Positions 9,175-40,386 of a stretch of 64,000 nt of DNA are shown here, in pieces. Position 1 is the stretch's first letter. The number at the start of each line of letters is the position of its first letter. The position numbers and the translations under genes were made by a program. The notes under the pieces were generated by a model. It worked only from the letters and a program-made list of their open reading frames with translations, made no database searches and was not told the DNA's origin. The stretch is from a virus: the IMG/VR virus record IMGVR_UViG_3300034683_000142, positions 34,885 through 98,884 of that record; one strand, 5' to 3'.

Positions 9175-11072
9175 TGAAGTATAAAAAATTACAACAAGGG
9201 GGATTACTTGTGTATCAACCCACAATTGTCCCATCATCTAGTATGCCAGCAGCTCAAAGTGGAGCTGTTGGCTCTACTGGTAATAAGAGTAGTATATTAG
9301 ATGATGATATAGTAAAACAATTATCTGGGGTAGAAGGATTAACTAATGATACTAATGCCTTAATCTCCCAATTAGCACAACTAGAATCATCTTCAAATCC
9401 TTTCTTAAGTAGGCAAAATAGAACAAAAGCATTAGCTATTATAGGAAGAATTAATGAGCTTAAACAAAATAAGTTTATGTGAGAAAAATCTTATAATACG
9501 GCTAAAGAATCTAAGGGCTTAAATGAAGTTGCTGTTGGAGATCTTGGAGAAATGTATGTAAAGGATAGTGAAGGAAATATAAAAGCAATTACTCCAGAAG
9601 AATATAAGAAGAATACAGATAGATATAGAGCTATGTCAGTAGCAGAATTGCTTGAAGAAAGAAATTCTAACCCAAATCTTACTGGAAAAAATGAAATATT
9701 TAATATAGCTAATAATTCTATTGGTATGGAAGAAATATCTAAATATGCCAATAGCATAGTAGCTGCTTTAGGTAAAGAAACAATAAAAGCTGCAAAAATA
9801 TATGATAGAGACAGTTTAGCATCTGCTTTAGATCAGTCTGGAAAAGATATTCAATTAACAGGAAGAAAAGCTACAAATGAAGAATTACAGGGATTAGCTA
9901 TACTAGAGTCTATGAAAGATAGTCCCTCTAATTATAATAAAGTTATTACCGAATCTAGTACAGAAAGAAATCATGTTTTAAAAGCAGCAAAATATATATG
10001 ATCTACATTAAATAATAGTGCTCAAAAGAAATTATCTGTTCAAGCAGCTTTAAACAATACTGATCCAACTAACTTATTAGTTGATTTAATAGTATTTGGA
10101 AGTGATGTTTCTAAGGATACTGATATTGTTCCTATAAAAGGAGGTGCTGGTTCAGGGTCTGGTTCTGGTGAAAGTTTAACTCATGCTACTCGTTTATCAC
10201 CATTTGAAATGTTTATAAGAGGTACTTTAAGTTCTGGAGCTACTATGAAATTTAACGATCCAGAATTTGCAGCTAAATATGAAGGACTGCTATTTGGACA
10301 AATGCCTTTAGTAACACCTAAAGGTGATCCTATTGGCCCAACAATTTTAGAAAATGTTCTTAAAAATGGAGAATATGAAAAGTATGTAGATAGAAATAAT
10401 ATATACTTTGGTAATAATAAAGTAAACATATGAAATACTAAAGAAATAGCTTTAGACGGTGGTTCCGAAGTAGCTCATGTTTTGTTACCAGTAGATAATA
10501 GTGGTAAACCAACCCAAGAATCACTAGAATCGTTTAGAAATGTTATGGATATCTACAACAAAAATAAAGATACTATGTCACCAGTAGAGATACAAAAACT
10601 ATTCAATCAACATAGATTTGATGTAACTGTGGATACAAATAAAAATGTAAAAGCTAGAATGATTGGAGGAAATGTGAAACCATTCTTGATAACATGAGGA
10701 TATACGACTGCCGCAGTTGATGACTTAGTAACCAACAATTTAAACTATAATAATGGAGGTCTTAGAAAAATTGAAAGTTCTGAAAAAGATGGTATTTGGC
10801 CTATATTAAAACAAGCCTGGACTGTAAAAGAAGGTAATAAAGTTAAAGTTAAAGATCCAAAAAGTTTTATGAAACAAGACCATGTATATAAAGGAATAAT
10901 ATTTATGCCACTTGTACAGAGTGCCGATGCAATAGCCTCAAGTTATGCTGGGCATGGGCCACTTAAACCAGCTTATACAGAAGAAGATGTTATGTATCAT
11001 GTTCAAAATAAATCAGGAACAAATTTTGTTCCATCAACAATAGAAGATATGGAGGATTCGTATGAATGATAA
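9174..11072 (+). CDS. Virion cargo protein, ~632 aa (TGA read-through)
   Basis: ORFs 9174, 9552, 10209, 10482 and 10869 share a frame and are separated by TGA. The gene ends TGA-TAA at 11067-11072. Confidence 0.75.
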
Positions 11073-14000
11073 TTTGCCTAAAATAGAGACTAAGTCTGGA
11101 ATAGTAAATGATATGTTTTTAGCTACTATTAAAAATCCTAATGCTACTACATATGATTTTTTAAATAATAATGTAAATCCTCTAAATACAAGGTTATTAG
11201 ATAGAGACGCATATAGGGATAAATCTGTAATAAAAGCACAGTTTACTAGACCAGATGGTAAATTTGATGAAGCAGCTTTTAATGCAGCTTATAATAAAGC
11301 TTTATTTAATTATAATCAGATATCTAATGAAGAAGCTATAAAGAATCTGGACGATGTTAAATATAATCCATTTAGTGTAACTAGGCCAAAAGAAGCTAAA
11401 GTTTGGGATGTAAAAATTGAATTTTCTGAAGACATAAATCCATTTAAACAGTTATATAGTAGAGATTGGGTAAACTCAGTTACAGACAATCCTTTAAGTC
11501 CAACAGAAATAGCTCAATCTGGAAAGATATTAGATACCAGAACTGGTGAATGGCTAGATTCTGCTAATAAGAAAAATATATTTGATAAATTTTTTGGTGA
11601 AACTTTAGTATATGCCCAATGGGATGAAGATGGTGTACATACTGATCCTATAACTGGAAATACTGTAAATCATAAAAAAGGTGATTGAAAATTTGATCCA
11701 GATGGAAACTTATATCTAGAAACTCTTGGAGATAGAGAAGTGTATGGAAAACAAGTTGTTAGTCCTACTGATATTTTAACAACTGATGGAAGTGTATTTA
11801 ATAAATTTGATTTTCTGGATTCAGATGGAAGAACTAAATCTGTAGGAAAAGTAGCTGCTAAAGCTGTTGCAGAAGTAGCTCCTTTACTTATACCAGGACT
11901 AAATACTTGGTATGCTGGGACAAGAGCAGCTGTTAGTCTAGCTTCTGTACTTCCTACCTTTTATAAATCTTTAGAAGGATTATTAATCGGTGATGAAGAA
12001 AGCATATTTACAGATCCAGTTACCAAAGCTGAAGGATGGTTGGCTAAATTTAATCAAAGTAGTAAATCTGAAGAAGCTTCTAGAAGTTTCTGAAATCTAG
12101 AGCAAATGTCTGATATGGTAACTAGTGTATTCTCTCAGATTTATGAACAGAGAGCTATGGCTAGTCTATCTAGATTATTAATGAAGCCTGACAAACTTTT
12201 AGATAAAAGAACTGCTGAATTACAAAATCTTATGTCTAAAAAAGCTTATGAAGCATCTACAAAATATGGTATTGATGCTAAAGAAGCTATAAGAAATGCA
12301 GTACAAGATTTACCTGAATTACAGGAATTATATAGAAAGCAATCCCAGTTTGCAAAGGCTTTAAGTCTTGGATATATGGCATTAACCTCAACAGGTAATG
12401 TGTATGGGCAAGCTATAGATTCTGGATATGATAGAAGAACTGCTGGATTTGCATCTTTATTAACAGCTGCTGGTCAATATGGTATTATGATGAATAATAG
12501 AATGGGTGATTGGTTCTTGGATAAGACTACAGGCTATTCTATTGGAGTAAATAATGCTTTAATGAATAAAGCTATAAAACCATATCTTGAACAGACAGAT
12601 GATATACTTAAAAATTCAGGATTAAGTATAGCAGCAAAGAGAACTAAACTTGCAGAGCTATCTACTAAATTCAAAAGGAATTTAGACAATATGTTTACTG
12701 GCCCTTCAGTACTAGGAGAAGCAATGTTTAGAAATGCTATGATTGAAGGTGCAGAAGAGGTTACTGAGCAAATGGTTCAGGATGCTACTCAAGGTATAAT
12801 AGATGTTATGGGTTATCTAGGATTGACTAAAGAAAGAGGAAATTTAAGGATAGCTGAAAAATATACTAGTGGAGAATTCTTACAAGAATACCTAGCTAAC
12901 TTCATTGGAGGTGTTTTAGGTGGAGGATTGTTTGAATTGGAGAGATTTAAAATTAATCCTTGATTATCCAATGATAATAAATCTGTAAGTAATGAAACTA
13001 AAAAAGAATTAATTGAACTTATAGCTGGAGGTCATAAGGAAGAACTTAAAGATATGATTAGAAAAGAAAGTAAAAAACTTACTAATGATTTCTTATCATA
13101 CGTTACAGAGGATGGTGAATTTAAACCAAAAGAGAGTGTATCTCAAGCTGATGCCGTAGCTAACCTAGTTATAGGTATGGTTGATCAGTTAGATACTGTT
13201 TTAAATTCTGAAGGATTAAATCTTACCGATGAACAAATAATTGATAAAGCTATACGTACTAAAGTTATATTAGACAGATTTGAAGAGCTTAAATCAGATG
13301 ATAAACCATTTGGTATAGAAGCTTTAGTTCTTGACGATCTAAAGAATACAATGGTTAAAATAGCTCCACTAAAAGCAGAAATAATGAATCTTGAGAAAGA
13401 TCCAGAAAATAATAAGGAGCAAATAAAACTTAAGAGAGAAGAACTTAAAGGATATTCTAGTAGAGTTAATGACATATTGGAAGGTAAGCTAGGCATGGAG
13501 TATTTTAACCAATTGCTTATGTTACTTGATAAACCTATAATATCTAAATATGGATCTTTCGATAGAGACACATATACAAAAGCAGTTTATAAGAAAAGTT
13601 ATGATGAATTACCAGAAACTGGCATAGTAACTAAAGAATCAGTTAATAAAGAATGACAAGATTATATAGACTCAACTGATATTAAGAGTAAGTTAAAAAC
13701 TGCTACAAATGCTTTCTTAAATAATGAAAAACTAATAAATCCAATAATAGCTCAATATCATGATACTGGATATTCTGTAGAAAGGAGTAAAGTATATAAA
13801 GATGTAATTGATTTAGCTAAAACAGCTTATCTATTTCATAACTCTAATCCCCAAGAAAAGCAAAAATGATTTACTCATTTTATAGATGTGATGAATAATC
13901 TAGAATCAAGAGGAACTACTAAAGTAGGAGCATGGGATGTCTATAAAACTAGTATATTTGATGAATTTCTTAATAACTCAATGATAAAAAGAGTTGATTA

Positions 14001-20000: not shown

Positions 20001-20148
20001 CGGTGATTTACCAACTTCAATAGATATTATTAAAGCTTTTTATGGAGAAATTTCTAAATTACCTAAAGAAGTTAAAGAAAAAATAAAGAATTCTAATTTT
20101 AGAAATTCTTTAAATAAATTAATAAAAAATATTAATCAATGTAAATAA
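11062..20148 (+). CDS. Giant virion protein (~3028 aa) with an SF1 helicase-like P-loop domain; RNAP-associated cargo
   Basis: Nine ORF-track pieces share one frame and the gaps contain no TAA/TAG (10 TGA). SF1 motifs GSAGSGKTT, LLIIDEVTH, GLGDQNQ, VQGSEVD and LYTFASRSR lie within ORF 16261..17997. Confidence 0.8.
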
Positions 20149-23100
20149 TGCATACTTGTAGTAATAAAATTCAGAAACGCATTATCGAGGCTATGGATAA
20201 CTACCTCCTTGATGCTGATAATCCTACATTTTTAGATTTAGAAGAGTATATAGCAGAAGAACTTGGAAGAGATACTTTTAGTTTTAAGGAAGTATCCGAT
20301 AATGCTCCAATAATTACAAAATTAAAGGACATATTTGGTGAAGATATAGACTTGTCATCTGACGAGTCTATATCTCACTATTCTAATATATTAAAGGATG
20401 TAAAATCGTACTCTATAGATGATTTGTTTCATGGTATTCCAGCTGCTAAAGTAGAGTTTGATAGCTATGTTAAAAGAGTTGTAATAGGAGAAGGTGTATT
20501 AGGTAAAAACAATGATGATACCTATGCAGTAAATGATGAACAGTTAAATAATAATTTTACTAGAATAAAAAGTGATTTATTTAACAAAATTCAAGATTTT
20601 CTAATCAGTAAAAATTTATATCATGGGGATATTCTGCCTTTATATAATGAAGAAGGAGTAGCAAATTATGATAGTTATGTAAATATAATGACTATTATTA
20701 ATGATTATTTTTTCAATAATCCAGAAATACCTATTATAAAATCATATACTAATAAGAAAATACCTAATCTATCAGTAAGTGATGCTAATAAGCCTATATT
20801 AGAAGCATACTATAACATGATTTTACTTTCTAATTTTGATACTGTTATAAGTACAAAATTTAAGAATTTCTTTAAAGTAAATTTAAATAAATTTAATCTA
20901 TTAGATTCTGGGTTTGGAGAAAATTTGAAATACTATTTAAAATTTGATCCAATAACTACTCCATATTGAAGAAACGATAATCACCAATCTGATAGCTCTG
21001 AAGAAAGAACTGATGAATTTACAAGAAATATTGTAAGTATCATACCTTTGTATAATAAGTATGGTGTTAAAACTGACGAGTATCTTGAGGTAAATGATCT
21101 TTATTTAATAGCTGCTAAAGTATCTGAATTTGAATTACGAGAAGGCAATAGGCTAAAGAATCAAAATACCAGCTTTGACTATTTTAATAGTAATCCTATA
21201 GAAAAACTCAAATGGTACATAGAAAATATTAACAAAGCTATAAGTAGGGAATCAGATTCAATACAAGAATTAAATAGATATTTTGATTCTATATATGATA
21301 AGATATTATCTATTGATAAATTTATAAATGAATCTGAATATAATATAGCTAAAAAAGAGGTTAATTCTGGAAATTCTATATTAGGTTATATAGCACAAGT
21401 AATTAATAACAATTATGGAACTTCATATGCATCTTATGATATTAAAGGAAAATATAATGTACAAGAAATGTATAACCAAGATTTTAACTCAACTAGGGTT
21501 CAAAGTACTGTATTTTCTACGTTAAAGATGCACTATGCAGATAAGGATTTTTATAATATATCGGATGACTTTGAAGAACTTTTTCCTAATAGAATAGATA
21601 CAGTTGATAACATATTACATGCTGTAGAATCTGGTGAAATAGACTACAATAAATTAAATAAATATATAACTTCTAAAACAGGTATAGCAATGTCTAAACA
21701 ATCTTTAATTAATACTATTAAAGATGTTTCAGTACATAATAAAAATGGCAATCCTGTTAACGGTATAGAATTTAAAAGTATGCTTAAAGAATTAATGTTA
21801 AATCTTAAAGCTGATTTTAGTTCTGATACATTTAGAGAAGCTGTAGCATTATCTAACGATAAATCTGTTAGGTTAGATTCAACTGTTGGTAAGTATTTAT
21901 CAAATACAGTAAAAAATCCATTATTTATAGCTCTAAAAAATTCTTTCATAGATAAGTTTACTGTAAAAGTAGTAATGAATGCTAATACAGCAAATGGTGA
22001 TACAATACCTTCTTTTAAAATAGGAAATCTTACATACAAGGACACACAGTTATTTGACTTAAGAAGACAATATGAAAGAGAAAATCCAAATGGATTTTTT
22101 AAAAGTTTGTTATTGAAAGACAGTCCAGCTATTCTTGGAACTTTGACTAAACTAGAAGTAGTTAGAAAAGGAAGAGCCAAAGACTATTCTAAACTTACTC
22201 CAGAAGAACAATTTATATCCGATTTTAATTATGACTTTTTAAAGAGTTTAAATTATTTTGGAAGATTTTCTGTAATATTAGGAAACTATTCTGATAAACC
22301 AACAATACTAGCCAAAATTATAAATGGAGATTTTAAGTTAACAGAAAATGGCAAGCCAATTGTCAGGGAGTCTATTGATACTATATTAGAAACTGTAAGA
22401 GTACAGTCTTTTTCTTATTATTCTGATTTATTAGATAGTATATTTTTAGATTATAAAAATATATTTGATATATTAGGTATTAAAAATAATATAGATTTAA
22501 ATTGGAAAAATAATAATAAATTAGAAGACAATGTAAAAAACATAAATGATATTCTTAAAGTTAATAGTATATCAAGTATAAATGATAGGCTCGCTGATAT
22601 ATCCCCAGATAAGAGACCAAATTTGTTAATGCAAGAACTTCACTATTCTAAATATTCTAATGGAACTTTTTTAAATAATCTTATCTTAGATAATTACCTA
22701 ATATTTTCAGATAGTTCTAAAGATGGGTTGTTTTATAATATGTTTGTTCCTAGAACTGAAAGTTCTTTCATAACTAAATTTTCTAAGTTTTCTAATCCAG
22801 ATTCTTTACATATAGACAAGAATGAAATTGATAGTTATTTAAATTTATTAAGTATAAATAGAGAAGACTTTAAGTCAAAGAACGGTAGTAAATCTACTTA
22901 TGAATATGATTCTTTACTTATAAATAATAAATTAAATCCATTTGTAAAGAAATGGCTTTGATTAAATTCTTTATTTAGAAATGAGTATTTATATATAGGA
23001 GTAAAAGGAGAGTATATGCATCCTCATAAGAGCAATATACTTTTTAGATTTGGAAGTGATGATAAAAACTATTGGGATAATTACTTTTTAGAAATGTCTA

Positions 23101-26100
23101 AAAGGATGATTCCATTAGGTAAAAGAAATGTTACTTATACTGCTTCTATAGAATCACCTATTAGAAATTCTAAAAGAGGTGTTCCAGATAAGATTAATGT
23201 TGCTGCAATAGAGGATTATAAATCTAATATATATACAACTTCTGGGTATAAAAAAATTGGAGCAGATTCACATGATGGCTCTTCTTTCTTAGATTATGTA
23301 TATAGTAAAATGGTTGATGAATCTTTTCCTGGAAAAGGTTATTCTGGAACTAAAAAACAGTTTGCTACCTTTGTAACCCCATATGGTGTCACAATTAAAA
23401 AAGATGCAGAATCAGTTATAACTAATGCTAAAATACTAGCATCTGGAGATTCTGACATTAATCTTCTTCATATTAAATATAAGATGCTAAACATTCCTAT
23501 AGGAGATGCTGTAAGATTAACATATAATTCTGGGAGTTTAGCTAATTATTATATAATAAGAAATGGTGTTAGACTTAGAGTAAATTCTATAAAGATAAAC
23601 AATGATGATGGTGGTAATTATATAAGTATAAACTATTCTAAAGGAATAGAAAAGGATGGCCAAATTATATATACTGGCTCTATAGACACTAAAGAATATA
23701 TAGATACTTTATATGATATATGAAATCATATAGGTGCACAATACTCAATAGATGTAAATGGAAACTTTAACGAAGAATCTAATGAAAGGTTATATGATAT
23801 AGTTATAAATACTAACAATGGTATTTTAAAAACTAAAATGATTCATATACTTTCTAATGTATCTGCATTAAAAGCAGGAGCTGCTGGAGTTAATAGTGTT
23901 TCTAGATGAAAGAGTTGGGATTCGTTATTATATTCTACTTATAATAGTAGATTTATGGGGCCTCAGTTGGATGCTTCTCATGAAGCTGATCAATCTGAAA
24001 TTAGGGAAGTATCTCAAGTTATTTCAGCTTTATCACAAGGAGGTTTTACAGCTGATATAGCTGATGAAGCCTATAGAGATATAGCTAATGTCATAGCTAA
24101 GTCTATGGATAAGTACTTAAAACATATGAAAGTAGATAATGTTGATAAGAATGCATTATATAATATGTTAAGTGCAAAATTCATTAGAAGCATACAAAAA
24201 TCTGATAGAGAGGAAATAACTAAAGACCTTATAAATATTTTATTAGATAATGGAGTACCTGTACCATTTAGTAATCAAAATTTTTATAATTTATATGTAA
24301 GAGAAATAATAACAACTCTAAATAATGACTTTATATCTAGAAATTATCCTGGAATAGGTGGAGTGTTGATACCATCTCATGGTATGATACAACTCTACGA
24401 TGTATTAGATGGAAACAAATGGATAACTGTTACTCAAGAAGATATTGTTAAAGAAGCTTTATCAGTTCTTAGAAATAATGAAAAAGTACCTGTAAACAGT
24501 ATTAAATTATATGACACAGTAGTAATAGGTGGAATAGAGTTATCAATTGATACAGAGCAAAGATTAAGATGGTTGAAAGATAACTATAGTGATAGACTTG
24601 TTGAAAAAGTACCTGAATGAAATAATGAAGATTTTGTAAACGAATATATAGTTAATAAATTAAAAGATATTTTAGTAAATTCTGAAGACATAGAATTAGG
24701 TGATACTATAAGAATAGATGGAGAAGCTATTACATTAGATACTCCAGCTAAATATTATTCTTTTAAAGAAAGTGGGCCATCTACTGTATATAGAGTTTTA
24801 TCTAAACCTAGAGACTTAAAACCAACTTTACATACTTTTAAAGAAATAGTATATGATCCACAAACTAATTCAGAAATTACTATACACAAAAATACTTTTG
24901 ATATTCAACCTTTAGCTTTATTATATAAATATACAGAAAATATATTAAATGATAAGGACAAAATTATTATCAATAATATAAAAAATTATATTGGCAATGA
25001 GAATATAGTTAAGTTTTTAAGAGCTTGGTATCAGAGAGATCTTCAATTATTAGATCACGGTTTAATAATGAAAGAACTTAAAGAAACAGATAATGTATCA
25101 GAATATTTTAAGAATGACAATGTATTAGAGGATATATTACAAGATGTATTATCTTATTATCAAAATAATGCAAATAAAATAGTTGATTTAAGATTTAAGC
25201 CTGCTGAAATAATGATGCCAGACATCTATAAATCTACTTTTAATAGAGACGATAATGATAGTTTGTATAGGATAAAAAAAGAGGGGCCTAAATACTTTAA
25301 AAATAAATTTGATATATTATATGACTATGATAATACAGAAGCTGATATAAAAATTGTAACTAGTGATGTTAGTAATCCTGTTTATATAAGACTTGTAACT
25401 AAATTAACTGGTGTAAATAATGTAAATATAAAAAGAAATCCAGATGTTGATTATGAGTTATACTCTAGATATAATGAGGTTGGTGATAGGTTATACGATT
25501 TAGTAGATTATAAAAACATTAGAGCATTCTCTGAGGGAGGAAAAGAAATAATAGAAATTAAAGTTGGATATACTGATAAGAATGGTAAAAATATTCTTAA
25601 GAGAAATGCATTTGCTAATGTAGAAAGACTGATAAAATCTTTTACAGATATAAGAGCTATTGTCCCACTAAATAATGGAAATATTAGTTCAGCTTATTAT
25701 AGTAATATAGTAAGTAAAGAGGAAATGTTAGATATATCTGAACAAGAAATAAAAAATGTAAAAAATGATGATTCTTTAGATCCTGTAAATGTATATTCTA
25801 ATATATCAAACATATTTTCTAAATATAACGATATTAATCTAGTTGGAATAGATACCTCAAATAAAAATTGATTTTCTAGTAATAAAGAATTAATTTTAAA
25901 TAGATTAGCTAATTCTATATATGCTTCTTGGGAAAAATCTCATGATGTAGTAGCTTCTCGTATTCCTTCTCAATCTATGCAATCATTTATGCCTATGCGT
26001 AATGTTGGATATATAAAAGGTAATACAAATGATGTATATGTGAGTGTACACCAGATATTTCTACAAGGTTCTGACTTTGATGTGGATAAGGCTTATATAT

Positions 26101-29100
26101 TAGGACATGGATTCTTGAATAATGGTAGAACTGATTTATGAACTAATCTAAGTTCATATTCTACAGTAGATCAGTTAAATGCATTAATGCAACTTCCTAT
26201 GCCTAGTGGAAAGATTATAAATATTATTGAAGGTAATGGAGACCCAAATTTAGAAATTCTATATAATCAAATAGCAAATAGTTTAGCTAATGTATCATAT
26301 GAATATGAATTACCAACTGAAACTATTCTATTATTTAATAAATTTATAAGAGCTTTACCAACTACTAATCTAGATGTATTACCTATAAATATAAGTCAAG
26401 AAAATCCTAATTTATCTTTTAATGAGTTTGAGAGATTGTTAAATAAGCATACTACATATACTGATTATAGTACAAGTCCATATAGTGTTAAGAATTCTAT
26501 TGTTCAAAAAATAAATAAAGTTATTTCTTCTGCTAGTAATCAAATTAATGCTAATACACCTGTTGATGTACAACCATTACATGATGCTATCAGAAATGTT
26601 CAAAATAAAAGAAATGGACAAACTCAACCTAAAAACGTAAGTAGTTCTAATAATATAAATAGTTCTAATAATAATGAAATAGGTAATCCTAATATAGTTT
26701 TTCGCACGTCTTCATTCAGTGATTATAAAGACAGAACTTATGAAAATGCTTCAGCAGATGCAACTATAGCATTAGCTACAGATTTTAATAGTTTTGGTGA
26801 ATTAGCTACTAAAGTAGCTGTTTTAGGACAAAATAAAAAATATATACCTATTGATGCTAACAACTTAAATGTAACGCCAGAAAGAGTTGATAAGATAGTT
26901 AATGAACTAAATAACCTATCTAATCCTACTCCTATTTTAAATTATTCTAAATTAGAAGAAAAGTTACAACTATCTACAAAAGAAAAACCAATTATTGTTT
27001 ATGTTGATGGTAGTGATATTAAAGGAACTGGTGCTATTGGATTTGGAGTAAATACCACTTATGATAATAAAGAGTATTCTATATCTGGCTCATTTGATAC
27101 AAATAACTTATCAAGTTTAGAAAAAGATTTAGGTATTAAATTAAAAAATAAGCCTTCCAATGCTGTAATGGAGTTTTATGGATCTTTAGTAGCATTGAGA
27201 AATACTCCAGAAAATGAATATATTGTTATTAGACAAGATTTAGAAGGTGTACAGCTTTGAATTTTATCAGGATTAATGGAGAGATTTTCTAATCAAAATC
27301 TAGATACAAAAAGCAAGTATGATTCTTGGTATAAATCTTTAACTGAAGAACAAAAGCAAGATTACTATAATAAAGTACAAAATATAATAGGTCTAGATAA
27401 AAATTTAATTTCTAAATTTGATTGGGACGGTAGAAAAGGATTTTATGCTGAAGATATGACTGTTAGAGCAATTCAGCAAAAGATAATAGATATTATATTA
27501 AACAGAAAAGGAAAAGTAAAATATCAATGAGTTAGGGGACATTCTGGTGAAGCTGGTAATGAAAAAGTAGATGCTATTGCAAAAGAAAGACGTAACTATA
27601 ATACATATAAAGATTTATTTAATAAATCCGCAGGTAAAGAAAAAAATACTGAAAATAATTTTAATTCTGATTTATCTAGTTTAGAGAAGAATGCTAAAAA
27701 AGAGATATCTCTTAATATAGCAGGCAATGGTATTTATACTATGAAAGGTAAATATACTCAAGACCAAGTTGATGAATTTACCTATAAATTATTAAAAGCT
27801 ATTATTGAGTCTCCTAATCTTAAATTAAAAATTAATTCTATTAGATCTGGTGGTCAAACTGGATTTGATGAAGCTGGTGCTAAAGCTGGTATAAAATTAG
27901 GAATACCTGTTACTGTCTTAGCTCCCAAAGGTTGGAAATTTAGAGATATAAATGGAAAAGATATTTCTGATGAAAAGAAGTTTAAAGAAAGGTTTAATAA
28001 TGTATTAAACAAAAATAAACAGATAAGTAATCCTATTCTAAGTAAAGAACAAAAAGAAACAGTAAAGACTCCAACTATACAACATATTGCTGATCATGAT
28101 AGTGACTTAGGAAAAGATAAAAAAGGGTATGAGCAATTTAGAATATATGAAAGGATTGATAATCAGGATGGATATAGTTTAGCTTATGGTAAACCTATTA
28201 AAATTAAAGGATTTGAAGAATTTGATTTTTATTTAGCAGAAAATCAAGAAGGAAGACCATGAACTACATATGAAAAAAGAACAGGTAGAATTACAAGTCG
28301 TGGAAATACTCAAAAAGAAGCAATTGAGAGTCTTCAAACTGGATTAAACTCTGTTGGATTGGATAATATGAGGAATATTATATCAAGTCAAAGGTCAGTT
28401 TATGAAGAAAATCAGGTAGAAGAATTTAATACAGAAGAAGTAGAAAATATATCAGATGAAGATAATTTAAATTCTCATGATATGTTATCTTATTATCAAC
28501 AACAGTATGATGCTTCCGTAGGTAAAGATAACACTGGTATAGCTGCTAATGGAGTAAAAGGATTGTTTGCTTTAACTGCTTATTATAATAATTTCTTTTT
28601 AAATACTTGGGGAAATAAAGATCTTACTGATACAGAACTTAGACGTAGTAGTAAACTATTTAAGAAGGATATTAAATTCAAGGATGATTTTGGAAATGAT
28701 GTAAGGATATTTATAGGAAGCTTGCCTGATGTACTTATAAATAGAAAACAAGAAGAATCTTTAAAAAGAGTTTTAGGAGATAATTATAGTAGATTATTTC
28801 CAAATAGTGCTGTATATATGAGTGCATTTGTATCAGCTGCAACAGACAATGCAAAAGAGCTTATTATGGCAAAGGTTAATGCTTCACCAAAATTAGCAGG
28901 AATGCACGCTTATATGATAGCATTAGGATTTACTCCAGATCAAATTACTGAGTTTATGACTTCTAAAACAGCTTCAAAAATTGTTTTGAGATCTACAGAT
29001 AATATATATGATGATGGTATTAGTAATTCTGTTACTAGGGTTATAAAGGAACTAAAAGCTGATCCTACCGTAAATAAAAGTCAGTTATTAGCGTTTGAAC

Positions 29101-30626
29101 AATTATACCTAGATTCTCAAGAATTTGCTAATCTTACAAGTATATTAGGAGTAAATCAAAAATTAAAAGCCAGAACTTGGGAAATGTATAATTTTTTAAG
29201 TAGATTTGATAATATATTAAGTTCTGCCGAAAAACTAGCTATTAAAAGTTTTAAAGACTTGGATAAAATTAAATTTAGAAATGCTATATTGAAGTATAAT
29301 AAATTATTAACTCCAGAAGATTCTAATTATATAGATGAAATATATGATGCTATAAATTCATTAACTTTAGAAAATGGTAAAACTGTAAAGATATTACACA
29401 ATTTTAATAGTAATTATTATTTCAGTAGTCCTAGATATAGACACTACGTTAAAGAATATTATAATCTTATTAAGAGAACTTTTAATATTTTTGAAGTAGT
29501 TGATGAAGTTCCTCATTTTAAAAAATTAATAGAAAGTTTAAGTATGTCAGATAATGTATTAAAAAATACTACTGAAAAATATAACTATACTTTAAATACT
29601 TTAAAAAATGTTTTAAATGATGAGTCTCATGAATTAAATGAAAATGATATTCCATTATATGTTAACATAAATAATTTAACTAAGGGATCTAATTATTTTG
29701 ATACTAAAGCTATATTATTATGGTTAAAAACAGACAAGATGAGTAAATATGCTTTTGATGTCGGGAAAATACTTAGACAAGCTGGAATGGATAGCATTAC
29801 ATTATATAAAGATAGCAGTTCAAGATATAACTTAGAAACTATAACAGTAACTCCTGGAGATGACTATATTGTAGATTTGACTACAGATTATGGAATTGCT
29901 AACTTTAAGAAATTGATGGAGGAGGCAGTTCTGCCATTACTACAGCAGTTAGATAATTCTAATGTTATAAAAAATCTTAGAGTTGAAACTATTACAAATC
30001 AGTATGGATTAAAGACTAATGCCATAGTATCAGCTTATGAACTTAAAAGATTAAATTCTTCAATAGCTATAGAGCAATTTAATCAACTTATTGATGCTTT
30101 TAATAATATAGATATCAACACATCTACAGCTAATAAGTTTCAGAATGCTTATGGTGAACCTTTACAGTGAAGGGATCTGTTCTATATTTATAATCTAGTT
30201 GTAAATAATGAAAGGTATGGGAATAAAAGACTTACACCTCTTTTTAGAGACTATACAAAAAGTTTTGATTCTCTATCTTTAGACTATATGAAGTTCTTTT
30301 CAAAAATAGATAAAGGTGATATAGACGTTTTGTATGATGATTTATATAATAGTCCAGAGTATATAAATGCTGATGAAGATACTAGAAAGTCTTTAAAAGA
30401 AAAATATGATAAAACTATTAAAGAAGATTTATTGTTTTATTCATTTAATGAAAGAGGCGTATTATCAGAATTAGAAGACAGCCCTGAAGTAAAAGCACAG
30501 ATAGCTAATCCAGATTTTGTTTTAACTTGAAATATAACTGGCAAATATGATACATCATATTATAAGATGAACTCTTTACTTAGAAAGATAAATTTAGGTG
30601 GTTTTATAGTAGAATTTAATTGTTAA
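20148..30626 (+). CDS. Virion DNA-dependent RNA polymerase catalytic subunit (~3492 aa, 12 TGA), with inserted SLOG and RNase H domains
   Basis: Single frame from ATG 20148 to TAA 30624-30626. SRIPSQSMQS...LQGSDFDVDK catalytic motif at 26067-26087 matches crAss/phi14:2-type DFDID RNAPs. Downstream GKDNTGIAAN and SAATDNAKEL motifs. Confidence 0.9.
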
Positions 30627-37000: not shown

Positions 37001-38692
37001 GATAGGGAACAAATAGACTATTTTGAACTAAATCTTGATACTATAGCTCATAAGGTAGCTTTTTATAAAACTAGAAAAAGAATATTCGATATAATACTCC
37101 CAACTATTGAATCATATGTATGGTGAATGAAGTTAATGGGAGGAAAGATGGATGAAAAGGTTAGGAAGCAACTAAACTATATAGTTAACCAGGTAAACCT
37201 AGCAGTATTTAGTAAACCATTAGTGGATGATGAAGAGAAAAATATAGCTCAAGGATTAGCTTTTCAAAAGAAATTTTCTACTATAGCAATGCTAGCTTTT
37301 AGACCAACTATGTTAGTAAAAGAAATAACTGTTGGAACTATAAGAAATCTACTTACTGCTGGTACAGGAATACATGCTGACTTTGGAGAAAAAGAAATGA
37401 TAAAGGCTTATGAAAAGTTATTAACTGTAGGGTTAAAACAAGCTGTAGAACATAATTTAATAGAGGCATTAAATAGTGAGTATAGAATAGCTAATATGGA
37501 TATAGCAACCATGCCAGAAAAAGTTCAACATGATAAATTAGGATTGGCAAGGGGATTAGGTAGATGAATGTTTGCTACATCAACTGGTGGAGATTACTTT
37601 AATAGGTTAGCCATATTATTAGCTAGAATGATTAAAGATGGTTCTTATGAAGCGCATTCTATGAAAGGAAATACTTTAGTATATGATCCAAGAAAAGATA
37701 AAAGATTTTCCTATTACTTAGCAGAAAGGGAAAAGTATAAGGATGCTGATGGCAATTATACTAAAAAATCTGGAGACTCTTTATACAATGAGCAAAGAAA
37801 TCTATATCTTTTAATGATAGAACAATTTAATTCTGAATATGCTATTGTAGGAGAAGGTCATCTTACAGAAAAAGATTTAATTCCTAAAGCTTATACTCTT
37901 AAAGAAAGAAACTCAATAAAAGCTATGGCTGATAGAGTATATGGAGCATATGATAAAGATGCACAAGCTCAAATTAATAATAAGTTAGCAGGAATTGCAT
38001 TCTTTCAATTTATGCAGTATTGGCCATCAAAAATGCAATTTTGATTTGGTAAACCAATATCAGCTGATGCATCTCCTGTAGGTAAGTTTGAACATGCAGT
38101 CAAAAAAGATGCTGATGGCAATCTAATACTCGATGATAAAGGTAAACCAATACATTTATATCTTAAAGATGTTGTAGATGAAAATGGTGATCCAGTATTA
38201 GATGAGTATGGTGTTCCAAAAAGAGAAATTGTAGAATATGAAACAGATGAAAAACTTATGGCTTGAAATGGCACTCCACAAGAAGGTATATTTTATTCTG
38301 TCTTTTATACAATAAATGATTTAGTTAGATTAAACTGGGATGATCTTAAAAAGAATAAATGAAGAGTAAATAGAACTCTTTATGCCATAGGAGATTCTGT
38401 TTTGATCTTTATGATATTAGGTATTATGAGAGCTATATACGACTCAATGAAAGATTCTACTGAAAGAGGTACTTTTAGTGGTGAAACTGTAGCCTTTATG
38501 GATGCTGTTAATACAAAAGTACTTAATGAGTATAATTTATGAAATAATACTTTTGGAGCATTAAGTTCCGAACCAGCATGATTAAGTTGGAGTTTAGGAG
38601 CCATGCAAAATGTAGGAGATGTTATTCAAGGTGACAAGACTTTGGGTAAAGCAGCTGCACAATCTATAGGTATGTTTGAAATGTTAAGATAA
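34052..38692 (+). CDS. Large virion cargo/RNAP-associated protein (~1546 aa, ~13 TGA)
   Basis: One frame from ATG 34052 (MGCFYY) to TAA 38690-38692, interrupted only by TGA where read. Confidence 0.75.
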
Positions 38693-38700
38693 AAAAAAAT

Positions 38701-38736
38701 AAGCCGAATACAGTAATTTCTGTACTCGGCTTTTTT
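38701..38736. terminator. Bidirectional intrinsic terminator 1 at the convergence of the two gene blocks
   Basis: A-run, then AAGCCGA-ATACAG-TAATTT-CTGTAC-TCGGCTT, then T-run. Confidence 0.8.
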
Positions 38737-38748
38737 ATTAAAAAAAAT

Positions 38749-38782
38749 AAAGGGAATAATCTATACAGACTATTCCCTTTTT
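38749..38782. terminator. Bidirectional intrinsic terminator 2
   Basis: AAAGGGAATA...TATTCCCTTT hairpin flanked by A- and T-runs. Confidence 0.7.
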
Positions 38783-38836
38783 CTAACAAACAAACAAAAA
38801 TAAAATGGAAACAAAATAGTTTTTAACTATTTTAAT

Positions 38837-39063
38837 TGGGGAGAGAGCAGGATTTGAACCTGCATGATTGGATTTTGAAATGGAGGCCAGTCTACAAGTT
38901 TTTTCAATGGGAATTTTACCCATCCTGCTTATTAATGTGTTTTCTGATGTGAGTTTTGTCACCTCTCACAGCCCACGTGGATTATGTATTATGCCACGTT
39001 GCAGTCCTTGTGCACTACCAATCTTACCATCTCTATGCGTCTAACCAATTCCGCCATCTCTCC
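38837..39063 (-). ncRNA. tRNA-like RNA (227 nt) with a large structured insert replacing the anticodon arm
   Basis: Acceptor stem GGAGAGA/TCTCTCC followed by CCA. D-arm GCG-GAATTGGTTAGA-CGC; T-arm GCAGG-TTCAAAT-CCTGC. There are 172 nt between the D- and T-arms. Confidence 0.75.
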
Positions 39064-39182
39064 TATTTTAAATATCCTTTCTAAGACTTTAAAAAATTTC
39101 AGTTAACATCTTCTTCATAACCAACTTTTGAATTGATCCTAATGTATTTGTATAGCCTTTACATTGATTTTACAATATATTA

Positions 39183-39395
39183 TTATCCTAAATTTTTCAT
39201 AATCAAAATTTCAGTTTGTCTATAATAATTTGAAAAATCATTATTTTTTAATTCTCTGTTAGCTATTTTTATAAGAAGTTTGTAATATTCATCTTCTATT
39301 AAATTCCTAATATTAGGATATTTACTTATTATATTAATAGTGTAATTTTTTACTTTGTGTAAATATGCATTATTAATAAGATCTATATATTCCAT
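39183..39395 (-). CDS. Hypothetical protein
   Basis: 70-aa ORF overlapping the thyX end, in operon orientation. Confidence 0.5.
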   Translation of the reverse strand: MEYIDLINNAYLHKVKNYTINIISKYPNIRNLIEDEYYKLLIKIANRELKNNDFSNYYRQTEILIMKNLG

Positions 39396-40386
39396 TCTCT
39401 ATTATATATCTATAAGATTTAAATCCTCTAAGATTACCACACCAACCTTCTTCCAGAATTATTCTTCCATTATAAAAACCTATTGTTTTTGTACTAGCTT
39501 GATATTCTTCTTCAGTTAAACATTGACAAATGTGCTCTAAAGGGCTTAAATGACCATTTTCTATGAGTTTGTCATGAAGTTTTATATCTTTTTCATAATC
39601 AATCTCATTATCAAATGTCATATAAGACAGTCTAGCACATCTTGCAGTTGCTATTTTAATAACATCATCAATATTATCTTTATCTATATTCTCTCTATAA
39701 GGAATATGCCATTGATTCTCTCTAAGAAATACAGGGGTAGATTTATTATAAGCATCCCACATAGCTTCTGCTAATGCTTGCATATGTATTTCTGCTTGAG
39801 CTATGTTACTCATTCTCCAATCATTTTCTGTCCAATTAGAACATTCTCCTGTATATAACATTGCTTGTTCTTTACTTTTAAATGTAGCTTGAGTTGGTTC
39901 TAAAGCTTCTGGTCTATCTTTTGGATACCAATTAATTACATATTGCGGACATCTGAGTTTAAAAAAGTTTTCAAACTCAGTTGCAGTAAGTAATACTGTA
40001 TGCCATAAAAAAGGTTCTAATAATCTATTACATAGTTGTTTTGTTACACCTTCAGAATGTAGTTTTTTAGCTTGAGTAACAGCATTATCTCTAGCAATTA
40101 ACCACTCTTTAATTTTAGATTTAGATTCCTCTTCATTAAAATACTCAGTACCCTGCATACCTTTGTGATCTTTTTGCCAAGCTATAGGTATAAATGGATC
40201 TTCTTCTACCATTTTAACCATTTTTTCAAAAGGTATAGCTCTACTACTAGCACTATTACGTGAAAACATTCTGTGAGTATTTAATTCAGGTAGTATAAAT
40301 CTAGGAAAGGTAAGTAAAAATGTAGTAACTCTATCCCCATGTATAGATATTGAGTCAGCTACAATATTAGCACTTATTTTATTCAT
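39373..40386 (-). CDS. thyX: Flavin-dependent thymidylate synthase
   Basis: ELNTHRMFSRNSASSRAIP, SARxARLSY-like (TARCARLSY) and GHLSPLEH motifs. Confidence 0.85.
   Translation of the reverse strand: MNKISANIVADSISIHGDRVTTFLLTFPRFILPELNTHRMFSRNSASSRAIPFEKMVKMVEEDPFIPIAWQKDHKGMQGTEYFNEEESKSKIKEWLIARDNAVTQAKKLHSEGVTKQLCNRLLEPFLWHTVLLTATEFENFFKLRCPQYVINWYPKDRPEALEPTQATFKSKEQAMLYTGECSNWTENDWRMSNIAQAEIHMQALAEAMWDAYNKSTPVFLRENQWHIPYRENIDKDNIDDVIKIATARCARLSYMTFDNEIDYEKDIKLHDKLIENGHLSPLEHICQCLTEEEYQASTKTIGFYNGRIILEEGWCGNLRGFKSYRYIIENGIYRSY

Follow-up and report, generated by a model that had tools for sequence, protein, structure and literature searches.

Among the viruses of the human gut crAss-like phages predominate, and to our knowledge little has been established about what else, apart from making RNA, is done by the giant 'transcription' proteins that they package. 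The virion RNA polymerases (RNAPs) of these phages have been described as carrying Val (or Ile) at position 4 of the DFDxD motif (bioRxiv 10.1101/2020.03.07.982082), and packaging and ejection of the polymerase were reported for phi14:2 (10.1101/2020.03.07.982082) and PhiCrAss001 (PMC10172136). Extreme sequence divergence has been reported for crAss RNAPs, and multidomain giant proteins are already known from the crAss transcription block (PMC7886860). Polyvalent virion effectors were described by Iyer et al. 2017 (PMC5512222), and Goslar Rhc (RNase H-clamp, Chimalliviridae) is a phage-encoded RNase H that serves replication and also aids transcription, the latter apparently through the resolution of R-loops (PMC13648698). 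Here we analyzed a 64,000-nucleotide stretch (nt 34885-98884 of the IMG/VR virus record IMGVR_UViG_3300034683_000142, 98,884 bp, CheckV completeness 53%), hereafter the window, from a gut-type crAss-like phage, in which the open reading frame (ORF) of a putative crAss-type RNAP carries an RNase H domain nested within a SLOG domain, itself nested within the polymerase.

A nested RNase H-SLOG cassette in the polymerase ORF

Like phi14:2 gp66 (6VR4) and PhiCrAss001 gp47/49/50, the 3,492-amino-acid (aa) window protein is a single giant polypeptide with a beta'-like DFDxD barrel, here DFDVD at aa 1976-80 (nt 26073-87) with SRIPSQ upstream and Val at position 4. Its gene, as in crAss virion RNAPs, lies within a block of giant late genes, and the adjoining giant ORFs encode 3,028, 1,140 and 1,549 aa (TGA = Trp). 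In contrast to the window protein, gp66 (2,180 aa) has no RNase H/SLOG insert between catalytic loop and bridge helix; the window protein also lacks a sequence-level match to gp66 and is translated with TGA as Trp.

A sequence-only reading of the window had placed an insert ~200 aa past DFDVD and proposed that alignment with other crAss RNAPs would delimit it. We carried out this alignment and obtained boundaries at aa ~2156 and ~2761. In the ortholog P0259 (2,904 aa, 68-71% identical), residues 1-2172 of the window protein (q numbering) correspond to residues 1-2186 and q2768-3492 to residues 2178-2904, with no cassette between them. At the junction, fine alignment shows P0259 running from ...NKR through about six residues to ISD..LNS.DMLSYYQQQY, where the window carries aa ~2156-2761. 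The flanks are also joined directly, with no cassette, in P0239 (949 aa, 61-75% identical) and in P0237, P0235 and P0236 (861-1,191 aa, 35-43% identical), and GenBank entries MT835470 (L001) and MT835492 (L002) are likewise without the insert. The insert itself is thus confirmed, at a distance from DFDVD slightly shorter than first given, ~180 aa by fine alignment. RNAP homology does resume beyond it as that reading held, since P0259 aligns again from q2768 with GKDNTGIAAN and ATDNAKEL in frame. Judged from these comparisons the cassette is optional, sister phages being either without it or equipped with other modules. No meaningful repeats were found flanking the cassette, and insert and flanks match in GC (0.26-0.30) and in GC at third codon positions (~0.11) with no compositional break at the junctions; there is no sign of an insertion mechanism or of recent import.

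Table 1 Features of the polymerase ORF and its cassette (nucleotide positions in the window)
Feature	Position	Strand	Residues	Remarks
Giant ORF, putative crAss-type two-barrel RNA polymerase polypeptide	20148..30626	+	3,492 aa	12 in-frame TGA = Trp
beta'-like catalytic barrel segment, SRIPSQ ... DFDVD	25956..26087	+		Asp triad at 26073-26087
Whole optional cassette	26613..28430	+	aa ~2156-2761 (~606 aa)	missing from orthologs
N/S-rich low-complexity linker	26613..26693	+	aa 2156-2182	
SLOG N-terminal half	26694..26927	+	aa 2183-2260	beta1-alpha1-beta2-alpha2-beta3-alpha3; block-mean pLDDT 72-92
Type-1 RNase H guest	26973..27617	+	aa 2276-2490	TGA = Trp at 27258 and 27528
SLOG C-terminal half	27690..28007	+	aa 2515-2620	LNIAGNG strand, SGGQTGFDEAG loop, APKGW; pLDDT 88-97
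Small beta-rich module + long helix	28131..28409	+	aa ~2662-2754	TGA = Trp at 28260
RNAP resumes, near-invariant GKDNTGIAANG segment + 26-residue helix	28449..28604	+	helix aa 2794-2819	candidate bridge helix
Near-invariant SAATDNAKELIMAK helix-loop-helix	28806..28877	+	aa 2887-2910	A4 columns 592-620; candidate trigger-loop/bridge-helix element

The sequence-only reading had further proposed that the RNase H sits within a SLOG domain and the SLOG domain within the polymerase. Profile searches agree with this architecture. The family phrog_10774 (179 positions) matches in two pieces flanking the RNase H, the N half at positions 5-59 (E 2e-6) and the C half at positions 78-164 (E 3e-17). Similarly, a local SLOG hidden Markov model (HMM) built from 185 contiguous homologous segments aligns its positions 1-78 with aa 2183-2260 and its positions 56-176 with aa 2496-2618, with the RNase H HMM at aa 2276-2490 between the two. 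In 193 of 221 related proteins the two SLOG halves are contiguous.

An AlphaFold model of the insert, which that reading had called for, was computed from a checked alignment containing window-derived bridging rows instead of giant proteins. Consistent with the profile matches, both domains fold with good predicted local distance difference test (pLDDT) values, 80-93 for the RNase H and 72-97 for the SLOG halves. The two linkers connecting them fall below 50, in keeping with an RNase H tethered to the SLOG domain by two flexible hydrophilic stretches of 15-25 aa. PDB entry 3IMK superposes on model residues 10..387, across both halves, and other Rossmann-type folds span residues 10..463; in the model, the split halves fold as one Rossmannoid domain. 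The N/S-rich linker, of which the model (beginning at aa 2168) contains the last part, has pLDDT <50 at model residues 1-12 (aa 2168-2179). Behind the second SLOG half, a disordered stretch leads to the small beta-rich module, modelled with strands at residues 495-552 and a helix at 555-587 (pLDDT 57-77). This module has no Pfam or PHROG match and is 100% conserved in P0253, a protein considered below.

We then consider the RNase H guest. Pfam RNase_H (PF00075) scores 34.8 bits against the whole protein and 42.4 bits against the segment (E 1e-10), above its gathering cut-off of 25.8, and the catalytic set proposed for an RNase HI-like domain is intact: D2287 (nt 27006), E2342 (27171), D2364 (27237), H2465 (27540) and D2475 (27570). 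All five residues are conserved in nine of nine aligned homologs with 47-82% identity, and the C-terminal motif aligns with E. coli RNase HI. The segment also conforms to the RNase H fold. The domain shares with type-1 enzymes (E. coli RNase HI, the human RNase H1 catalytic domain, retroviral RNase H) the Asp-Glu-Asp-Asp set, the His124 equivalent, the conserved Trp of the WV(K/R)GH motif and a segment matching the basic protrusion. Unlike these enzymes, members of its clade have ~45 additional, helical residues that separate the third catalytic Asp from the protrusion, and no close stand-alone relative of 132-422 aa was found; the search for such relatives returned only the window's own fragment. 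The domain is predicted to be active on RNA:DNA hybrids.

In the searches made, this RNase H clade occurred only inside crAss-type giant proteins, and besides the window protein at least 12 phage proteins combine it with an RNAP-bearing giant polypeptide. The closest relatives of the RNase H are arranged otherwise. Some carry the two domains in tandem, RNase H-SLOG in P0002 and P0260 and SLOG followed by RNase H in P0044. Others have the RNase H alone, anywhere from the N-terminus to ~1,350 aa past DFDxD: P0004 and P0007 carry it far upstream of the motif, whereas in P0071 and P0078 the motif precedes it by ~1,350 aa. Among the 234 proteins in the HMM search, only the window protein has the RNase H nested as a guest, and scans of IMG/VR and JGI contigs found no close relative with the nested form. 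NCBIfam gave nothing informative except sub-threshold RNase HI matches, and automatic annotation already calls some relatives 'ribonuclease HI' or PF12694. A MAFFT alignment had pictured a divergent SLOG half behind the RNase H in the RNase-H-bearing giants; the SLOG HMM finds none, and we rejected the picture as an artefact of column restriction.

The scaffold was compared with known SLOG structures. Profile A5, made from 18 contiguous phage SLOG domains, matches 3IMK with E 2.6e-10 in two stretches of swapped order, profile 141-177 to chain 5-41 and profile 24-108 to chain 53-136. The swapped order indicates that, relative to PF12694, which Pfam names 'circularly permuted YpsA', the phage SLOG is itself circularly permuted. 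The N half matches PF12694 at positions 49-113 with E 0.067, and some SLOG homologs exceed the Pfam cut-off, such as P0157 with 39.9 bits. The earlier assignment as SLOG/cpYpsA-like therefore holds for the YpsA clade of SLOG domains and fails for a collinear cpYpsA, since the order is permuted and the window's scores lie below the Pfam cut-off; on its sequence the domain is filed as a YpsA-clade SLOG and not as a collinear PF12694 member. It shares with this clade (PF12694, 3IMK 'putative molybdenum carrier protein' and the viral SLOGs of PMC9503650) the Rossmannoid fold, the glycine-rich GGQTGxD(E) loop, the RT..NA..D..T and LNIAG motifs and the co-occurrence with NADAR. It differs in being circularly permuted relative to 3IMK and PF12694 and in being split by a 255-aa guest. 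The guest site is the alpha3-beta4 loop, immediately before the LNIAGNG strand. We had considered that this site could be the permutation point of cpYpsA; the profile alignment to 3IMK puts that point further on.

The SLOG domain is strongly conserved. Across 18 diverse proteins there is no variation in its GGQTGxDE loop (SGGQTGFDEAG in the window, within aa 2565-2581) or at ~30 further positions. The window has every residue of the invariant A5 columns (R, T, N, D, G, E, N, G, Q, D, E), and SLOG identity is unusually high, 65-80%, between otherwise unalignable giant proteins. Viral YpsA-clade SLOGs, which are fused to NADAR or Macro domains, were predicted to act on cADPR-like signals (PMC9503650). 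By analogy, the window's SLOG may bind or cleave a nucleotide derived from NAD or ADP-ribose. 'Hypothetical proteins' of ICP1-like vibriophages also match the SLOG C-half at 31-33% identity (tblastn hits H10-H30), so that the SLOG domain is not confined to crAss-like phages.

Turnover of the cassette and its guests

The region had been proposed as a domain-insertion hotspot. We see this at two levels, at the RNAP site, where inserts are swapped or absent, and at the SLOG alpha3-beta4 loop, where 22 of 221 proteins carry guests. P0253 (643 aa, from an independent Logan assembly) matches the window protein at ~97-100% identity along q1944-2251 and q2519-2704, but between these stretches an unrelated ~145 aa replaces the window's RNase H and linkers. 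Together with the absence of the whole cassette from the 68-71% identical ortholog, this replacement in a ~97%-identical strain shows at the sequence level that the RNase H is dispensable. P0126 (95-99% identical) carries an extra ~220 aa directly after the second SLOG half, and P0238, with 90-94% identity downstream, departs from the window sequence ahead of q2761. In P0244, a relative of aa 2014-3010 with 60-67% identical flanks, an ART-PolyVal domain (PF18760, 39 bits, residues 419-536) sits between q2825 and q2831, ~60 residues downstream of the window's cassette, and P0245 has an unassigned ~220-aa insert at the same site.

Within the SLOG domain, the 22 proteins have an extra 116-309 residues at one position of the SLOG HMM, and these guests fall into about ten unrelated BLAST groups. 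Those identified include NADAR (P0157, P0217), which has proven anti-DarT1 activity in other phages, and DUF7831 (P0137). We also observed guests of a family with the motif VFVFGSN..G.HG.GAA, of a IEAGIRTRTTRS family, and several singletons. Homologous giant proteins elsewhere carry NADAR, ART-PolyVal, Zeta-toxin, helicase or HNH domains. Taken together, the cassette is probably a fast-changing accessory kit.

This pattern resembles that of the polyvalent proteins (PMC5512222), which combine unrelated enzyme domains in one virion-associated protein and vary in content between close relatives: the window protein holds RNase H, SLOG and a further module in an RNAP, and its architecture varies among relatives. 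Unlike in those proteins, where effectors are appended at the ends in tandem, the window's effectors are nested two deep, RNase H in SLOG and SLOG in the polymerase core. Neither RNase H nor SLOG occurs in the text of PMC5512222.

Reading frame, polymerase elements and the position of the insert

All strings quoted in the sequence-only reading are in frame in the code-4 translation of 20148-30626. In addition to DFDVD, they are YKDRTYENAS... at aa 2193-2221 (nt 26724-26810); the RNase H strings VYVDGS (aa 2284-89), SNAVMEF (2337-43), IRQD (2361-64) and WVRGHSGEAGNEKVDAIAK (2461-79); the SLOG C-half strings LNIAGNG (2522-28), IRSGGQTGFDEAGAKAG (2565-81) and APKGW (2592-96); and, beyond the insert, GKDNTGIAAN (2792-2801) and ATDNAKEL (2898-2905). 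Under the standard code the region breaks into same-frame ORFs interrupted by TGA, including 26187-27260 and 27741-28262.

The need for TGA read-through was also upheld, because code 11 truncates the RNase H at aa 2371 and again at aa 2461. Opposite each of these codons, 8-9 of nine well-aligned homologs from other phages have Trp, and in locus L005, a standard-code ORF, the equivalent Trp residues are encoded by TGG. The second (aa 2461) aligns with the Trp in the KWEWVKGH segment of E. coli RNase HI. The mix of TGA and TGG for Trp is the same in the insert as in its flanks. The plus-strand late block depends on recoding, and the minus-strand genes mostly do not. On this comparative evidence, the recoding of TGA as Trp in this phage is real.

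Several side observations concern the same region. Reading TGA as Trp approximately doubles the summed length of plus-strand ORFs of at least 300 aa and barely affects minus-strand genes, and strand and GC skew switch at ~38.7 kb (window 1-38692 on the plus strand vs 38700-64000 on the minus strand). A tRNA-like element considered at 38837-39063 was rejected, having no Rfam tRNA match and no ARAGORN call; the best Rfam rows in window 38500-39400 lie below threshold and resemble terminator hairpins (38692-38781). Cys occurs only twice in the 3,492-aa protein, as residue 4 and as the last residue (3492).

We also located the insert relative to the elements of the polymerase core. In gp66, the bridge helix begins 168 residues and the trigger loop 237 residues past the first Asp of DFDID (10.1101/2020.03.07.982082). 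In the insert-free coordinates of P0237, the slot lies at +170-176, the 26-residue helix at +202-227 (residues 498-523 of the P0237 model) and the SAATDNAKELIMAK helix-loop-helix at +291-314, with its tip at low pLDDT (residues 598-612 of that model). By analogy, the helix at aa 2794-2819 and the element at aa 2887-2910 are likely to be the bridge helix and the trigger loop, in either assignment. The cassette is thus situated ~33 aa before the first of the two near-invariant elements.

The RNAP parts are highly divergent. A phmmer search of RNAP segments against the 120 giant proteins of the first search gave no matches, which we attribute to this divergence, only SLOG and RNase H being common to these proteins. 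In L001 (MT835470.1, 3501-14355) the polymerase gene is interrupted, and the break falls exactly on the DFDxD motif: the first ORF stops at the q1986 equivalent, the second begins at the q1978 equivalent, and the 1-kb gap between them contains a 238-aa ORF (10629-11342). Either an intron carrying a homing endonuclease or a natural split of the polymerase could account for this. In L002 (MT835492.1, 5257-15459) the ortholog forms an open frame of 3,401 aa only if TAG is taken as a sense codon (table 15), so that related polymerases use two different recoded codes, TAG recoding there and TGA = Trp in the window.

Possible role of the cassette

The explanation we favour, with a probability of about 0.6, is that the 3,492-aa ORF encodes the crAss-type virion RNAP of this phage and that the cassette is an accessory effector kit with a role in host interaction rather than an obligatory part acting in cis. 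On this account the cassette would be inserted in frame in a surface-permissive linker of the polymerase and would enter the host cell with the packaged enzyme, its domains acting as autonomous enzymes on flexible tethers in the manner of polyvalent proteins. The RNase H would act on RNA:DNA hybrids at or close to the phage genome as it enters, hydrolysing their RNA strand. Such hybrids could be R-loops from a polymerase preferring single strands or hybrid intermediates of host systems, and they are plausible given the in vitro preference of gp66-type enzymes for single-stranded templates. Binding or cleavage of a nucleotide derived from NAD or ADP-ribose would be the part of the SLOG domain, a role that fits its recurrent pairing with NADAR. 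Two findings favour the accessory role: the RNase H is dispensable in a near-identical strain and takes many positions elsewhere, and guests are exchanged rapidly at the same two sites, which suggests that host defences, and not a core role in transcription, drive selection.

Several points weigh against this explanation. The PDB contains no sequence match linking the protein to gp66, whole-protein phmmer found nothing, and a profile of insert-free RNAP homologs gave only chance matches against the PDB, although such a result fits the extreme divergence reported for crAss RNAPs. The structural match to gp66 (6VR4) comes from the model of a 35-39% identical homolog, not of the window protein itself, and that model is modest (mean pLDDT 60.9, catalytic region <50). 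Packaging and ejection of this phage's polymerase would be expected by extrapolation from distant relatives. For the SLOG domain, PF12694 scores 21.4 and 20.1 bits, below its cut-off of 26.2 and over model positions 1-32 only, and neither PADLOC (a defence-system library) nor NCBIfam gives a match. ARAGORN calls no tRNA, and hence no suppressor tRNA, in the 98.9-kb record (completeness 53%). The source of P0253 is a Logan contig of 3.6 kb, and the comparison with it was made at the protein level. Finally, an RNase H tethered to an RNAP could destroy the enzyme's own transcripts if hybrids persist, which argues for regulation.

The RNase H might instead be a cis-acting part of transcription or replication, seated beside the bridge-helix and secondary-channel side of the polymerase, where it would clear R-loops behind the enzyme or cut transcripts down to primers for replication of the phage DNA, as in ColE1 or T7. 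We consider this unlikely. In its favour, gp66 accepts single-stranded or denatured DNA as an in vitro template, so that RNA:DNA hybrids would be left behind (10.1101/2020.03.07.982082), and Goslar Rhc is a precedent for a phage RNase H serving both replication and transcription (PMC13648698), albeit as a separate protein bound to DNA polymerase and not nested in a packaged RNA polymerase. The recurrent fusion of the clade to RNAP-bearing giants and the closeness of the insert to a near-invariant helix would suit it as well. In contrast, the widely varying position of the RNase H relative to DFDxD between phages indicates that no fixed geometry is needed, its replacement in the ~97%-identical strain and its absence from the ortholog show that it is not essential to the polymerase, and in the window it hangs on long, low-confidence linkers inside another domain.

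A bolder version, which we hold to be unlikely, treats the packaged polymerase as a two-level 'socket' system whose guests are exchanged on the timescale of strains, with the RNase H as an injected counter-defence enzyme. One slot would be the site just ahead of the bridge-helix region, the other the alpha3-beta4 loop of the SLOG domain, and RNase H, NADAR, DUF7831, PUA-like and other domains would be the guests. The RNase H would destroy hybrid intermediates on which host immunity relies, such as products of defence reverse transcriptases or retrons and RNA-guided R-loops, and the SLOG scaffold might gate its guest and act as sensor or consumer of a nucleotide signal.

It is very unlikely that the domains are enzymatically irrelevant passengers, that is, spacers, aids to packaging or ejection, or decaying remnants of fusion. 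Their dispensability in relatives, the need for cargo proteins to unfold partly for ejection (PMC10172136) and the loose tethering suggested by long low-complexity linkers are compatible with such a role. The retention of the five RNase H catalytic residues and the conserved Trp in all nine homologs speaks against it, as does the invariance of the SLOG loop and its ~30 further positions, and the SLOG identity between otherwise unalignable giants points to strong purifying selection. Least probable of all is that the insert lies outside the mature polymerase through termination at TGA, through intron, intein or proteolytic removal, or as an assembly chimera: the code-11 fragments, the richness of some crAss-like groups in introns and inteins (PMC7886860), the polyprotein cleavage proposed for these proteins (10.1101/2020.03.07.982082) and the missing suppressor tRNA would fit, yet code 11 breaks the RNase H fold at two conserved Trp positions, a single frame is open for 3,492 codons with the same pattern in all plus-strand late genes, 25500-29500 holds no Rfam intron or other RNA family at E <= 0.1, the protein with its two Cys has no Hint/intein Pfam domain and no Cys/Ser/Thr splice-junction pattern (on which grounds an intron or intein was rejected), a code-11 fragment spanning RNAP, SLOG-N and the N-terminal part of the RNase H is recorded on three contigs, and base composition is uniform across the junctions.

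RNase H in crAss giant proteins is not mentioned in the papers surveyed, PMC7886860, PMC5512222 and PMC10172136 among them. Three aspects appear to be new, namely an RNase H as guest, the double nesting and the evidence for the SLOG loop as a reusable socket. Because standard-code gene calling splits the region into at least three meaningless ORFs, such architectures are systematically missed. For the polymerase, our comparisons show that the core tolerates large in-frame enzyme cassettes beside its catalytic elements, and that a conserved SLOG domain serves as a scaffold, with guests that can be interchanged in its loop. The series of alleles with no cassette, SLOG with RNase H, SLOG with an unrelated guest, and an extra module amounts to a natural experiment. 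An RNase H in an injected RNAP would be a first direct link between crAss early transcription and the processing of RNA:DNA hybrids.

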